A DNA stretch of 4,977 nucleotides, taken from IMG/VR virus record IMGVR_UViG_2698536372_000026. One strand, written 5' to 3'. The translations under genes and the position numbers were made by a program. The first letter of the stretch is position 1; every line of letters begins with the position of its first letter. Below are positions 1 through 4,977 of the stretch, piece after piece. The DNA comes from a virus (Duplodnaviria > Heunggongvirae > Uroviricota > Caudoviricetes). The notes under the pieces are model-generated. The model was not told the DNA's origin, made no database searches, and worked only from the letters and a program-made list of their open reading frames with translations.

Positions 1-1647
1 AGCACGGCCTGCCCGGACTGGGCAGAGCGCCTGAAAAAGGGGCTGTCGATTATTCCGGCTCCGATTTATCCGGAGCAGGCCGCACATGCCCTGGCGATTT
101 TTAAACAACTGCGGATTGTGGATGCACCGGGCAGCCCGACGTTCGGGGAGTCCTGCGCACAGTGGGTGTTTGACCTGGTGGCGGCCCTGTTTGGCTCCTA
201 CGATGCGCAGACCGGTGTACGCCATATCAAGGAAGTTTTTATCCTTATCCCCAAGAAAAACAGCAAGTCCACGCTGGCTGCCGGGATCATGATGACGGCG
301 CTGTTACTGAACTGGCGGCAGGCGGCGGGCTACACCATTCTGGCCCCGACCGTGGAGGTGGCGGCTAACGCCTTCAACCCTGCCAGGGATATGGTACGAC
401 GGGACGATGATCTGGATGACCTCTGTCAGGTGCAGACACATATCCGGACCATCACCCACAGGGTGACGGACACCACCCTTAAGGTGGTGGCTGCCGATCC
501 GAATACGGTATCCGGTATCAAGTCCGTGGGGACGCTGATTGATGAACTGTGGTTATTTGGCAAGCAGTACAAAGCGGAGGACATGCTACGTGAAGCCATA
601 GGCGGCCTTGCCTCCCGCCCGGAAGGGTTTGTGGTGTATACGACCACCCAGTCGAATGAGCCGCCAGCCGGGGTGTTCAGACAGAAACTGCAGTACGCCC
701 GGGATGTCCGTGACGGCAAAATTCATGATCCGCATTTTCTGCCGGTGATATTTGAACACCCTCCTGAAATGGTGGAAAGCGGGGCTAACCTGCTGATGGA
801 AAACCTCGCCATGGTCAATCCGAATCTCGGCTATTCAGTGGATGAGGCCTTTCTGTACCGGGAGTACCGTAAAGCCCGGGAAGCCGGTGAAGAGACATTC
901 CGGGGGTTCATGTCAAAACACGCCAATGTGGAAATTGGTCTTGCCCTGCGCTCTGACCGCTGGGCGGGGGCTGATTTCTGGGAAGAGCAGGGCCGTTGTA
1001 TCAGCCTGGACGATATCCTGCGTCGTGCTGATGTGGTGACGGTGGGGATTGACGGCGGAGGGCTGGATGATCTGCTGGGGATGTATGTGACTGGGCGTGA
1101 CCGGGAGACCCGCGAATGGCTGGGCTGGGGCCATGCCTGGGCGCATGAAACCGCGGTGGTCCGACGGAAGAGCGAGGCGTCCCGGTTTCAGGATCTTGTT
1201 GCCTGTGGAGATATGACCATTGTCCGGCGTGTCGGGGATGACACGGCGGAAGTGGCGGAATATGTGCGTCGCATTCATGAGGCTGAGTTACTGGACCATA
1301 TCGGTATTGACCCGTCAGGGGTGGGGCAGATTCTGGATTCACTGGCGGAAGCCGGGATCCCCGACGGAATTGTGGTGGGGATAAGCCAGGGCTGGAAACT
1401 GGGCGGGGCCATTAAAACCACCGAGCGCAAACTGGCTGAAGGGGTGCTGGTGCATGGTGACCAGCCCCTGATGGCCTGGTGTGTCGGCAATGCCCGGGTG
1501 GAGCCTAAAGGTAACGCCATTCTTATCACCAAACAGGCCAGTGGACGGGGAAAAATTGACCCGCTGATGGCGCTGTTCAATGCGGTCTCCCTGATGTCCC
1601 TTAACCCGGAACCGAAAAAGAAAGAATATGCGGTTTTTTTCATATAA
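1..1647 (+). CDS. Phage terminase large subunit (TerL), 5'-partial; ATPase plus nuclease domains
   Basis: Frame 1 is open from base 1 with no stop, so the gene starts upstream; the GTG at 118 in the ORF track is not the true start. Deviant Walker A 'PKKNSKST' at about 250-273. Walker B-like 'GTLIDE' at about 535-546. C-terminal RNase-H-like nuclease motifs 'VVTVGIDGGG' (about 1033-1062) and 'HIGIDPSG'. Stop TAA at 1645-1647. Family assignment is by motif recognition only. Confidence 0.85.
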   Translation, partial: STACPDWAERLKKGLSIIPAPIYPEQAAHALAIFKQLRIVDAPGSPTFGESCAQWVFDLVAALFGSYDAQTGVRHIKEVFILIPKKNSKSTLAAGIMMTALLLNWRQAAGYTILAPTVEVAANAFNPARDMVRRDDDLDDLCQVQTHIRTITHRVTDTTLKVVAADPNTVSGIKSVGTLIDELWLFGKQYKAEDMLREAIGGLASRPEGFVVYTTTQSNEPPAGVFRQKLQYARDVRDGKIHDPHFLPVIFEHPPEMVESGANLLMENLAMVNPNLGYSVDEAFLYREYRKAREAGEETFRGFMSKHANVEIGLALRSDRWAGADFWEEQGRCISLDDILRRADVVTVGIDGGGLDDLLGMYVTGRDRETREWLGWGHAWAHETAVVRRKSEASRFQDLVACGDMTIVRRVGDDTAEVAEYVRRIHEAELLDHIGIDPSGVGQILDSLAEAGIPDGIVVGISQGWKLGGAIKTTERKLAEGVLVHGDQPLMAWCVGNARVEPKGNAILITKQASGRGKIDPLMALFNAVSLMSLNPEPKKKEYAVFFI

Positions 1648-1672
1648 CCCTGTTCACACTGTAACCATCACG

Positions 1673-1697
1673 AACCGCTCCGGCGGTTTTTTTATTT
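1673..1697 (+). terminator. Candidate intrinsic terminator or attenuator between terL and the protease-capsid gene
   Basis: 6-bp stem aaccgc (1673-1678) / gcggtt (1683-1688) with loop tccg, followed by a T-run (ttttt a tttt, 1689-1698). The stem is short, so this would be weak or leaky at best. Confidence 0.3.
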
Positions 1698-1699
1698 TC

Positions 1700-1705
1700 A
1701 GGAGG
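1700..1705 (+). promoter_or_regulatory. Shine-Dalgarno AGGAGG for the GTG start at 1711
   Basis: AGGAGG lies 5 nt upstream of GTG 1711, which is the first start codon of the long frame-1 ORF. Confidence 0.6.
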
Positions 1706-1710
1706 CTGAT

Positions 1711-3462
1711 GTGACTCTTAAACGGGCCTGTTCCCTGCTGACGGTGAAATCCTTCAGTGAGGATGAACGGGTGATCACCGGGATTGCGTCAACGCCTTCT
1801 CCGGATCGGGATGGTGACATCCTGGAGCCGGAGGGCGCGGAGTTTGGCAGTGCGATCCCGTTTCTCTGGCAGCATGACCATTCCCGCCCGGTGGGGCAGT
1901 GTACGGTACGCCGGGTCAGCGAAGGGCTGGAAATCACGGCAACACTGGTGAAGCCCGTACCGGATATGCCGTCGCAACTGGCTGCCCGGCTGGATGAGGT
2001 CTGGGCGGCCATTAAGACCGGGCTGGTCAGGGGGCTGTCCGTGGGCTTCCGTCCCCATGAATACACCTTTCTGGACGGAGGCGGACTGCATTTTCTGCGC
2101 TGGGAACTGATGGAGGTGTCTGCCGTCACCGTGCCCGCGAATGCGGAATGCACCATCCGGACCATTAAATCTTACGACCGCCCGTTTTCTGCCGCGTCCG
2201 GCAACCGGAAACCGGTGGTGAAAATCGCATCTTCTGCCGGCGCTGCGGCACAGTCAACAACCGTTTTTCATAAGGAAAAGACCATAATGAATATTGGCGA
2301 ACAGATTAAAAGTTTTGAAAACAAGCGTGCAGCGCTGGCAGCCTCCCTTGAGGAGGTCATGACCAAAGCCGCAGAGGAAGGGCGCACGCTGGATGTGGAG
2401 GAGGAAGAGCATTACGACAACACCGCAGCGGAAATCCGTCAGGTGGATGCGCACCTGAAGCGCCTGCGTGAACTGGAAGCCGGTAAGGCCGCCACGGCGC
2501 AGCCGGTGAAACAGGCCGGTAACGGGAATGTGGCCGCGGTGGCTTCTGCGCCGGTGATCCGTGTGGAGCAGAAACTGGATAAGGGGATTGGCTTCGCCCG
2601 CTTTGCCAAATCGCTGGCTGCGGCTAAAGGCGTCCGATCTGAAGCCCTGGAAGTGGCCCGTCGTCAGTATCCGGATGACAGTCGTCTGCACCATGTTCTG
2701 AAATCGGCGGTGGGGGCAGGAACCACCACGGACCCGCAGTGGGCAGGCAGCCTGTCTGAATACCAGGAATATGCGCAGGACTTTATTGATTACCTGCGTC
2801 CGCAGACCATTATCGGGCGATTTGGTCAGGGCGGGATCCCTGCACTTCGTCAGGTGCCGTTCAATATCCGTGTGCACGCCCAGGTGTCCGGCGGTGCTGC
2901 CGGCTGGGTGGGTGAGGGTAAGGCAAAACCCCTGACGAAGTTTGATTTTGAATCCATCACCTTCAGTCATGCGAAAGTGTCGGCCATTGCGGTACTGACG
3001 GAAGAATTGATCCGTTTTTCCAGTCCGGCTGCTGATGCACTGGTCCGTAATGCGCTGGCGGAAGCGGTGGTGGCGCGTCTGGACACAGACTTTGTGGACC
3101 CGAAAAAAGCGGCGGTGGCGGATGTCTCCCCGGCGTCCATCACCCATGATGTGAAGGGCACGGCATCAACCGGTAACCCGGATGCGGATGCCGAGGCCGC
3201 GTTTGGCCAGTTTGTGACGGCAAATCTGCAGCCCACCGGTGCGGTCTGGCTGATGTCCAGCACCAATGCCCTGGCGCTGTCCATGCGTAAAAATGCGCTG
3301 GGGCAGAAGGAATATCCGGACATGACCCTGCTGGGCGGGACCTTCCAGGGGCTGCCGGTGATTGTCTCCCAGTATGTATGCCGCGTCCGGCAACCGGAAA
3401 CCGGTGGTGAAAATCGCATCTTCTGCCGGCGCTTCGGCACAGTCAATAACCTCTTTTCATAA
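1711..3462 (+). CDS. Fusion ORF: HK97-family prohead protease domain, coiled-coil scaffold (delta-like) segment and HK97-fold major capsid protein; C-terminus replaced by out-of-frame read-through at the duplication junction
   Basis: 583-aa ORF. The N-terminal ~155 aa carry prohead-protease motifs: 'WQHDHS' (His55/His57, nt 1873-1881), 'GLSVGF' (Ser110, nt 2038-2040) and 'ELMEVSAVTVPANAE'. Residues ~193-260 are charged and helical (EQIKSFENKRAALAASLEE...EEEEHYD...LKRLRELEAGKA), typical of a scaffold or delta domain. The remainder is a capsid body that is nearly identical to the downstream capsid gene. The last 28 aa (CRVRQPETGGENRIFCRRFGTVNNLFS) come from reading copy 2 of the repeat in the wrong frame. 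Stop TAA at 3460-3462. Confidence 0.85.
   Translation: MTLKRACSLLTVKSFSEDERVITGIASTPSPDRDGDILEPEGAEFGSAIPFLWQHDHSRPVGQCTVRRVSEGLEITATLVKPVPDMPSQLAARLDEVWAAIKTGLVRGLSVGFRPHEYTFLDGGGLHFLRWELMEVSAVTVPANAECTIRTIKSYDRPFSAASGNRKPVVKIASSAGAAAQSTTVFHKEKTIMNIGEQIKSFENKRAALAASLEEVMTKAAEEGRTLDVEEEEHYDNTAAEIRQVDAHLKRLRELEAGKAATAQPVKQAGNGNVAAVASAPVIRVEQKLDKGIGFARFAKSLAAAKGVRSEALEVARRQYPDDSRLHHVLKSAVGAGTTTDPQWAGSLSEYQEYAQDFIDYLRPQTIIGRFGQGGIPALRQVPFNIRVHAQVSGGAAGWVGEGKAKPLTKFDFESITFSHAKVSAIAVLTEELIRFSSPAADALVRNALAEAVVARLDTDFVDPKKAAVADVSPASITHDVKGTASTGNPDADAEAAFGQFVTANLQPTGAVWLMSSTNALALSMRKNALGQKEYPDMTLLGGTFQGLPVIVSQYVCRVRQPETGGENRIFCRRFGTVNNLFS
2190..3378 (+). repeat. Tandem direct repeat, copy 1 (1189 bp): linker, scaffold and capsid coding segment
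   Basis: Aligns base for base with 3379..4567 at a constant offset of 1189, with no indels seen. Hand count gives about 57 mismatches, i.e. about 95% identity. Confidence 0.9.
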
Positions 3463-4567
3463 GGAAAAGTCAGCAATGAATACTGGTGAACAGATTAAAA
3501 GTTTTGAAAACAAGCGTGCGGCGCTGGCAGCCTCCCTTGAGGAGATCATGAACAAAGCCGCAGAGGAAGGCCGCACACTGGATGTGGAAGAGGAAGAGCA
3601 CTACGACAACACCGCAGCGGAAATCCGTCAGGTGGATGCGCACCTGAAGCGTCTGCGTGAACTGGAAACCAGTAAGGCCGCCACGGCACAGCCGGTGAAA
3701 CAGGCCGGTAACGGGAATGTGGCCACGGTGGCTTCAGCGCCGGTGATCCGTGTTGAGCAGAAACTGGATAAGGGGATTGGCTTCGCCCGCTTTGCCAAAT
3801 CGCTGGCTGCGGCTAAAGGCGTCCGATCTGAAGCCCTGGAAGTGGCCCGTCGTCAGTATCCGGATGACAGTCGTCTGCATCATGTCCTGAAATCGGCAGT
3901 GGGCGCGGGGACCACCACGGATCCGCAGTGGGCAGGCAGCCTGTCTGAATATCAGGAATACGCACAGGACTTTATTGATTACCTGCGTCCGCAGACCATT
4001 ATCGGGCGATTTGGTCAGGGCGGGATCCCTGCACTTCGTCAGGTGCCGTTCAATATCCGCGTGCATGCCCAGGTGTCCGGTGGTGCTGCCGGCTGGGTGG
4101 GGGAGGGTAAGGCCAGACCCCTGACGAAGTTTGATTTTGAATCCATCACCTTCAGTCATGCGAAAGTGTCGGCCATTGCGGTACTGACGGAAGAATTGAT
4201 CCGTTTTTCCAGTCCGGCTGCTGATGCACTGGTCCGTAATGCGCTGGCGGAAGCGGTGGTGGCGCGTCTGGATACAGACTTTGTGGACCCGAAAAAAGCC
4301 GCAGTGGCAGATGTCTCCCCGGCGTCCATCACCCATGATGTGAAGGGCACGGCATCAACCGGTAACCCGGATGCGGATGCAGAGGCGGCGTTTGGACAGT
4401 TTGTGGCAGCAAACCTGCAGCCCACCGGTGCGGTCTGGCTGATGTCCAGCACCAATGCCCTGGCACTGTCCATGCGTAAAAATGCGCTGGGTCAGAAGGA
4501 ATACCCGGACATGACCCTGCTGGGTGGCTCCTTCCAGGGGCTGCCGGTGATTGTCTCCCAGTACGTG
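3379..4567 (+). repeat. Tandem direct repeat, copy 2 (1189 bp)
   Basis: Starts immediately after copy 1 with no spacer. Junction sequence is cagtatgta|tgccgcgtcc. The flanks diverge from the copies at 2189 vs 3378 and at 3378 vs 4567. Confidence 0.9.
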
Positions 4568-4678
4568 GGTGACCAGCTGGTGCTGGTGAATGCCCCGGAT
4601 ATTTATCTGGCTGATGACGGCGGTGTGGCGGTGGCGGTGATCACCGGAGTGAACTACGGCAGTGCGTCCGGCGGCTGA
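3476..4678 (+). CDS. Major capsid protein, HK97 fold, with N-terminal coiled-coil scaffold or delta-like segment (complete copy with native C-terminus)
   Basis: ATG at 3476 is preceded by AAGGA (3461-3465) at 10-nt spacing and sits just after the upstream stop at 3462. The frame is open further upstream, so TTG 3362 or ATG 3374 are alternative starts (the ORF track shows 3362..4678). About 97% aa identity to residues 193-555 of the upstream fusion ORF. Native C-terminus ...SQYVGDQLVLVNAPDIYLADDGGVAVAVITGVNYGSASGG. Stop TGA at 4676-4678. Confidence 0.8.
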   Translation: MNTGEQIKSFENKRAALAASLEEIMNKAAEEGRTLDVEEEEHYDNTAAEIRQVDAHLKRLRELETSKAATAQPVKQAGNGNVATVASAPVIRVEQKLDKGIGFARFAKSLAAAKGVRSEALEVARRQYPDDSRLHHVLKSAVGAGTTTDPQWAGSLSEYQEYAQDFIDYLRPQTIIGRFGQGGIPALRQVPFNIRVHAQVSGGAAGWVGEGKARPLTKFDFESITFSHAKVSAIAVLTEELIRFSSPAADALVRNALAEAVVARLDTDFVDPKKAAVADVSPASITHDVKGTASTGNPDADAEAAFGQFVAANLQPTGAVWLMSSTNALALSMRKNALGQKEYPDMTLLGGSFQGLPVIVSQYVGDQLVLVNAPDIYLADDGGVAVAVITGVNYGSASGG

Positions 4679-4684
4679 GTCTGA

Positions 4685-4692
4685 TAAGGAGG
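4685..4692 (+). promoter_or_regulatory. Strong Shine-Dalgarno (TAAGGAGG) downstream of the capsid stop
   Basis: taaggagg at 4685-4692. It is about 30 nt from the ATG at 4723, too far for a direct RBS unless the intervening hairpin folds. Confidence 0.45.
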
Positions 4693-4693
4693 A

Positions 4694-4713
4694 CGGGAGG
4701 CGTGCGCCTCCCG
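4694..4713 (+). promoter_or_regulatory. Perfect 9-bp GC-rich hairpin between the capsid gene and the next ORF
   Basis: cgggaggcg (4694-4702) / cgcctcccg (4705-4713) are exact reverse complements around the loop 'tg'. No U-tract follows (taacaggtt), so this is not a classical intrinsic terminator. Confidence 0.5.
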
Positions 4714-4722
4714 TAACAGGTT

Positions 4723-4944
4723 ATGGCAAAGATCCGATATCTGCAGGGCACGCATGATGCCCGGGCCGGGGATATCCGTGATGTGGCACAGCCGTGTGCG
4801 GAGGTGCTGGTTCGCCTGGGAAAGGCGGAGTACATCACGGTGCGACGTCCGGCAGGTCAGAAAAAGAAACGTGATGCGGAGCATGGCGAATGTGGAACCT
4901 TTTACGGCGAACCCGAAAAAACCAGAAATCAGGACGTGACGTAA
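4723..4944 (+). CDS. Hypothetical small protein (73 aa) downstream of the capsid gene; possibly head-associated
   Basis: ATG 4723 to TAA 4942-4944. Third codon positions are G/C-rich like the neighbouring genes. Position directly after the capsid gene fits a small head-completion or connector-type protein, but I recognise no motif. The overlapping frame-2 ORF 4754..4939 is Arg-rich and less plausible. Confidence 0.45.
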   Translation: MAKIRYLQGTHDARAGDIRDVAQPCAEVLVRLGKAEYITVRRPAGQKKKRDAEHGECGTFYGEPEKTRNQDVT

Positions 4945-4977
4945 GAGAGGCGGGCTGGACCAGCCTGTTTCAGGCGG

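Follow-up and report, generated by a model that had tools for sequence, protein, structure and literature searches.

A head-to-tail capsid gene duplication in a draft Escherichia coli prophage sequence is almost certainly artefactual

Whether a phage head module can carry its capsid gene twice in tandem, or whether such an arrangement exists only in an assembly, is the question raised by a sequence of 4977 nt (the window, i.e. the whole stretch of DNA that was analyzed), in which most of a capsid coding region appears in two consecutive copies. The window corresponds to the entire record CYEF01000106.1 (4977 bp) of the draft E. coli assembly GCA_001283205.2; a literature search for CYEF01 and GCA_001283205 retrieved neither a paper nor a description of the pipeline. 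On the evidence presented here, we are almost certain that the duplication is an artefact and that there is no second capsid gene in the DNA.

The window covers part of the head module of a lambdoid prophage, of the Stx-converting type, and is 98.9% identical to prophages of the closed E. coli genomes EH2252, 97-3250, 06_3235, and others. Two prophages, each a single-copy locus in the closed genome 06_3235 (NZ_CP074939.1, positions 1257583-1261370 and about 3589220-3592882), are referred to as P1 and Z, respectively, in the following; P1 is identical in the closed genome EH2252. The genes of the window are:

1..1647, + strand: gene for the large terminase subunit (TerL), P1 allele, 5' end cut by the contig end; Pfam TerL_ATPase and TerL_nuclease
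1711..3462, + strand: ORF of 583 aa (CTY34906.1), regarded as artefactual; protease, scaffold-like linker, capsid domain cut at the gap, and 28 out-of-frame residues
3476..4678, + strand: ORF of 400 aa (CTY34935.1), regarded as artefactual; capsid part only, with its start at an ATG inside the real fused gene
4723..4944, + strand: small hypothetical gene of 73 aa between capsid and portal genes (WP_001063099.1 in the prophage loci L001 and L008)
4890..4977, + strand: first part of the portal gene, truncated where the contig stops; the portal CDS of the EH2252 locus L001 (9701-12280) maps to the window from 4890 onward

The TerL gene is 100% identical to P1 of EH2252 and 06_3235 and has the annotation 'terminase large subunit' in L001; the 73-aa ORF had no Pfam match. 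Peptidase_S78 and Phage_capsid domains were found above the gathering thresholds within one ORF both for the 645-aa Z protein and for the ORF at 1711-3462, where they comprise residues 48-152 and residues 386-556 (profile positions 38-213 of 280), respectively. This is an HK97-type head module with a fused prohead protease and major capsid protein, and the real genes encode fused protease-capsid proteins of 592 aa in P1 and 645 aa in Z, each present once. The gene order along L001 (5426-12280) and the window is TerS, TerL, protease/capsid, small ORF, portal, with the portal gene following the capsid gene; the usual order in HK97-like modules is TerL, portal, protease, capsid.

The tandem repeat at 2190-4567 is present as it had been described from the sequence alone: positions 2190-3378 and 3379-4567 align head-to-tail at an offset of 1189 without any gap, with 1131 matches and 58 mismatches (95.1% identity), and agreement at 1131 of 1189 positions rules out chance similarity. 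The ungapped diagonal at this offset extends from 2190/3379 to 3377/4566, and beyond both ends identity is at chance level. The homologous unit proper is therefore 1188 nt long (2190-3377 and 3379-4566), and base 3378 belongs to neither copy. With 58 mismatches over 1189 nt, 57 of them real, the earlier hand count of about 57 substitutions was accurate, yet the differences are not randomly scattered: of the 57, 41 affect third codon positions and 39 represent transitions, and the 57 together cause 14 amino acid changes. The designation of the repeated segment as scaffold-capsid region was roughly right, in that the unit extends from the linker behind Peptidase_S78 through most of Phage_capsid, all within one fused ORF.

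All 57 differences between the copies are natural allelic states of P1 and Z. Moreover, the complete window can be assembled from these two prophages with no mismatch over 4977 nt, as P1 1-2800, Z 2801-3377, one additional base, Z 2190-2800, and P1 2801-3788. The resulting segments are:

1..3377, + strand: contig A, P1 up to the shared stretch and Z thereafter, exactly P1 1-2800 plus Z 2801-3377; ends at the N of the record
2190..3377, + strand: copy 1, P1 at 34/34 variant sites (2245-2775) and Z at 23/23 variant sites (2871-3375)
2776..2870, + strand: stretch of 95 nt shared by P1 and Z (unit positions 587-681), containing the P1 to Z switch of contig A
3378..3378, no strand: scaffold gap, N in CYEF01000106.1, A in the window, G in all alleles examined
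3379..4977, + strand: contig B, Z from the start of the unit to the shared stretch and P1 thereafter, exactly Z 2190-2800 plus P1 2801-3788
3379..4566, + strand: copy 2, Z at variant sites 3434-3964 and P1 at variant sites 4060-4564
3965..4059, + strand: the same 95-nt shared stretch as 2776-2870, containing the Z to P1 switch of contig B

Neither copy equals the unit of P1. At unit positions 56-586 P1 agrees with copy 1 (34/34 variant sites), and at unit positions 682-1189 it agrees with copy 2 (24/24 variant sites); removal of one unit from the window yields exactly the P1 sequence of the closed genome. The two remaining halves, window positions 2776-3377 and 3379-4059, when searched separately both matched one and the same locus of 06_3235, namely Z at 3.59 Mb, with 100% identity (matches H134 and H175). 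Each copy is thus a reciprocal chimera of P1 and Z, with both switches within the same 95-nt stretch common to the two prophages, and the sequences that make up the copies belong to distinct paralogues which are single-copy in finished assemblies (P1 and Z in 06_3235, P1 also in EH2252).

This composition bears directly on the idea that illegitimate recombination joined two prophages such that the left flank and copy 1 derive from one of them and copy 2 and the right flank from the other, a model of one phage per copy that was implicit in the preliminary description. Taken as wholes, the copies do resemble different alleles, copy 1 being 99.1% identical to the allele at L003 and copy 2 99.5% identical to that at L005. 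However, the flanks 1-2189 and 4568-4977 are both 100% identical to the EH2252 prophage P1, while prophage alleles other than P1 show only 91-98% identity there; in addition, the allele switches are found inside the copies, each of which is half P1 and half Z, and not at the junction between them, whose only base is an N in the public record. The P1 flanks and the internal switches refute this model, and we consider its probability almost negligible.

The nature of the junction base became apparent from the comparison of the window with CYEF01000106.1. A single position, 3378, distinguishes the two, with N in the record and A in the window; this is the sole N in CYEF01000106.1, and it is located exactly between the two copies. 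Position 3378 is also the one base that is explained by neither P1 nor Z, and every natural allele examined has G at this site and none has A. The A arises from how the window was prepared, and the "junction" is a one-base scaffold gap that joins two contigs, 1-3377 and 3379-4977. As the record has N at 3378, the two copies lie on two different contigs, and the DNA across the junction was never sequenced. The string 'cagtatgta|tgccgcgtcc', which had been proposed as a PCR target, includes the N and does not represent sequenced DNA. Among the hallmarks listed for false duplications is an assembly gap that separates the two members of the pair on one scaffold (PMC9516828), and the N at 3378 is such a gap. 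A real tandem, on the other hand, should show a sequenced novel junction from the end of one unit to the start of the next, and at this very point the record contains N.

The junction and the tandem arrangement were also absent elsewhere. The junction was not found in 5426 closed E. coli genomes, and searches for its exact sequence gave no match among genomes at one representative per species, in IMG/VR viral contigs, or in JGI metagenome contigs. The only full-coverage match to the junction query among the 5426 closed genomes, H51 in strain NCCP 13918, was rejected as a carrier of the junction because the gene there lacks about 890 bp of its interior and is not duplicated. At this locus (L002 5531-6567, NZ_CM167686.1) the deletion removes approximately unit positions 145-1032, and the fused gene is annotated as a frameshifted pseudogene; as a deletion, this rearrangement is of the opposite kind to a duplication. 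The proteins whose sequences depend on the junction, CTY34906.1 and CTY34935.1, each occur on one contig only among about 15 billion proteins. The tandem was therefore not seen in any independent assembly or relative (0/5426 closed genomes; junction proteins on one contig). The preliminary description had suggested a search for single-copy versions in related genomes, and these were readily found: the fused gene is present once in about 1250 closed E. coli genomes, and in all closed E. coli genomes listed the match measures 3788 or 3947 bp, or more where an IS element is present, which corresponds to one copy.

A real tandem could nevertheless have been formed if a circularized 1188-bp fragment of Z, or a Z-Z tandem intermediate, had recombined into P1 within the shared stretch. 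This would give the order P1 first half, Z second half, junction, Z first half, P1 second half, and the assembler would merely have missed one base at the junction. In fact, Campbell-type insertion of a circular Z unit predicts exactly the observed layout of reciprocal chimeras. However, the junction, being N, is without sequence support, although a true junction would be unique sequence and easily assembled. It was found in none of the 5426 closed genomes and in none of the three contig collections, its proteins do not occur elsewhere among the roughly 15 billion searched, and where P1 and Z occur in closed genomes with 100% identity, there is one copy of each. At least two rare events would be required, compared to one routine artefact. 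We also considered whether the single copy in a closed genome (L001) could represent the collapse of a tandem by one crossover, and rejected this because the single-copy Z locus supplies both foreign halves and the junction is N. Overall, a real tandem duplication of the capsid gene is highly improbable, and even less probable than an origin of the two contigs as genuine recombinants (see below).

Of the origins suggested previously, chimeric assembly of two co-resident related prophages thus proved essentially correct, given the reconstruction from P1 and Z without mismatch and the N at 3378. Unequal or illegitimate recombination between prophages found no support, as the junction is N and the switches are internal to the copies; the same applies to a real two-capsid-gene arrangement, since P1 and Z are single-copy in closed genomes and the junction is unsequenced.

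As to the specific mechanism, it is very likely that P1 and Z were mis-phased during assembly and that the resulting contigs were then falsely joined during scaffolding. According to this scenario, the source strain would have contained two or more related lambdoid prophages, among them P1 and Z, with about 95% identity between the fused prohead-protease/major-capsid genes of these two. From short reads, the assembler would have produced two contigs, each crossing from one prophage to the other inside the identical 95-nt stretch; contig A comprises the left flank and first half of P1 followed by the second half of Z, and contig B the first half of Z followed by the second half and right flank of P1. 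Both contigs cover the same 1188 nt of the gene. Read pairs connecting the two halves of P1, and likewise those of Z, would link A to B at a negative distance, and the scaffolder, which could not merge an overlap that is only 95% identical, would have set the contigs end to end with a single N. Two broken capsid ORFs would subsequently have been called during annotation. We infer that the P1/Z switches reflect mis-phasing by the assembler and that the single N marks an overlap which was predicted but remained unmerged. In the output of scaffolders such as SSPACE and ABySS, a single n stands for an overlap that is expected but not found. The ends of the pieces were also examined with respect to de Bruijn graph geometry, computed from P1 and Z alone. 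The piece that starts at 3379 begins exactly 55 nt ahead of the first variant specific to Z, in agreement with k=55, but the piece ends at 1, 3377, and 4977 fit no single k, and this was dropped as evidence. Greedy scaffolding and gap-filling are acknowledged causes of false joins (PMC5320598).

Alternatively, only the join across the N might be false while the contigs are genuine, each of them being a true recombinant prophage sequence that originated from a real reciprocal exchange between P1 and Z in the 95-nt stretch, for example through a chromosomal inversion. In 06_3235, P1 maps to 1.26 Mb (+ strand) and Z to 3.59 Mb (- strand), and because of this inverse orientation an inversion by recombination is geometrically possible. 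The capsid alleles of this family are visibly mosaic, and the location of both switches in the same identical stretch is what a single reciprocal crossover predicts. However, longer identical stretches of 156 and 125 nt could also have served for a real crossover. Furthermore, genuine recombinants should not give rise to read pairs between the end of A and the start of B, so that the scaffolder would have had no reason to join them, whereas mis-phased contigs should yield A-B pairs at negative distance, which fits a join with one N. We therefore regard genuine recombinant contigs as very unlikely and mis-phasing followed by a false join as the preferred explanation. Should the contigs be genuine after all, the record would document a real exchange between the capsid genes of P1 and Z, and the tandem arrangement would still be a scaffolding artefact.

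Several further observations concern the head module itself. Compared to the 645-aa form (L007 3936-5873), the capsid gene of P1 (L008 4711-6489) shows an in-frame deletion of 159 bp, corresponding to the window region 4568-4678 and flanked by the 9-bp direct repeat GTGGCGGTG. The deletion removes 53 residues (DMSREASLEMQ...RRRRTAAV), which correspond to roughly the final 50 positions of the Phage_capsid profile in Pfam, and the ORF at 3476-4678 (CTY34935.1) has this C-terminal deletion of P1. At least two closed genomes share this allele in identical form. Judged from its sequence, P1 is probably unable to build a capsid.

Protease and capsid are encoded in one ORF with no intervening stop codon, and a ribosome-binding motif of the AAGGA type is located about 8 nt upstream of an internal ATG at the start of the N-terminal coiled region of the capsid part (ATGs at 2287 and 3476; regions 2270-2290 and 3459-3479). 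This suggests a putative nested translation of the capsid protein alone beside the protease-capsid fusion, comparable to C/Nu3 of phage lambda. Between TerL and the protease/capsid ORF, a terminator-like hairpin followed by a T run is found at window positions 1672-1699 (GAACCGCTCCGGCGGTTT then TTTTATTTTC), just upstream of the Shine-Dalgarno sequence AGGAGG of the protease/capsid ORF at 1701; a scan of the window for promoters and terminators revealed nothing relevant to the repeat. The portal CDS is intact (2580 nt) in P1 of EH2252 (L001 9701-12280). In most of the closed genomes examined it is annotated as a pseudogene with a frameshift (L003, L004, L005, L007, L008, L009); these frameshifts could represent a recurrent sequencing error, decay, or programmed frameshifting.

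The significance of these findings is restricted to quality control and has no bearing on the biology of phage capsids. The deposited proteins CTY34906.1 and CTY34935.1 are to be regarded as artefacts, and the example illustrates that an N rendered as A can make a scaffold gap look like a novel junction. When a strain of Shiga-toxin-producing E. coli (STEC) is multi-lysogenic, a short prophage contig in its draft assembly may be a chimera that combines different co-resident prophages, and draft STEC prophage contigs are unfit for inferring duplication or recombination unless reads or closed genomes are consulted. The 90% cluster of the capsid protein has 9916 members, many of which are marked 'partial', on contigs of 1-10 kb. 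Contigs of draft E. coli assemblies frequently break in the capsid gene, and other chimeric or falsely duplicated contigs of this kind may therefore exist elsewhere.

Among known systems, the closest parallel to the arrangement in the window are the false ('heterotype') duplications at scaffold gaps described by Ko et al. (2022, Genome Biol 23:205, PMC9516828), in which diverged versions of a sequence likewise adjoin each other with a gap between them, two genes are annotated, and finished genomes hold one copy. The case described here differs in that the versions are not the two haplotypes of a diploid but paralogues from two prophages of a haploid bacterium, and in that each false copy also combines both paralogues as a reciprocal chimera. 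With a genuine tandem duplication by unequal or illegitimate recombination the window shares the head-to-tail orientation and the fixed offset; such a duplication, however, has a sequenced novel junction and each of its copies represents one haplotype, whereas here the junction is N and the copies are half-and-half chimeras. After removal of one unit, the window shows 97-98% identity to the lambdoid Stx-converting phages 2851, YYZ-2008, and Stx2a_WGPS6, and this similarity spans TerL, the fused protease-capsid gene, the small ORF, and the start of the portal gene. The head modules of these phages show the same domains, Peptidase_S78 and Phage_capsid, in a fused major head protein/prohead protease; the gene is present once in each of them, and the P1 allele in the window differs by the lack of 159 bp at its 3' end.
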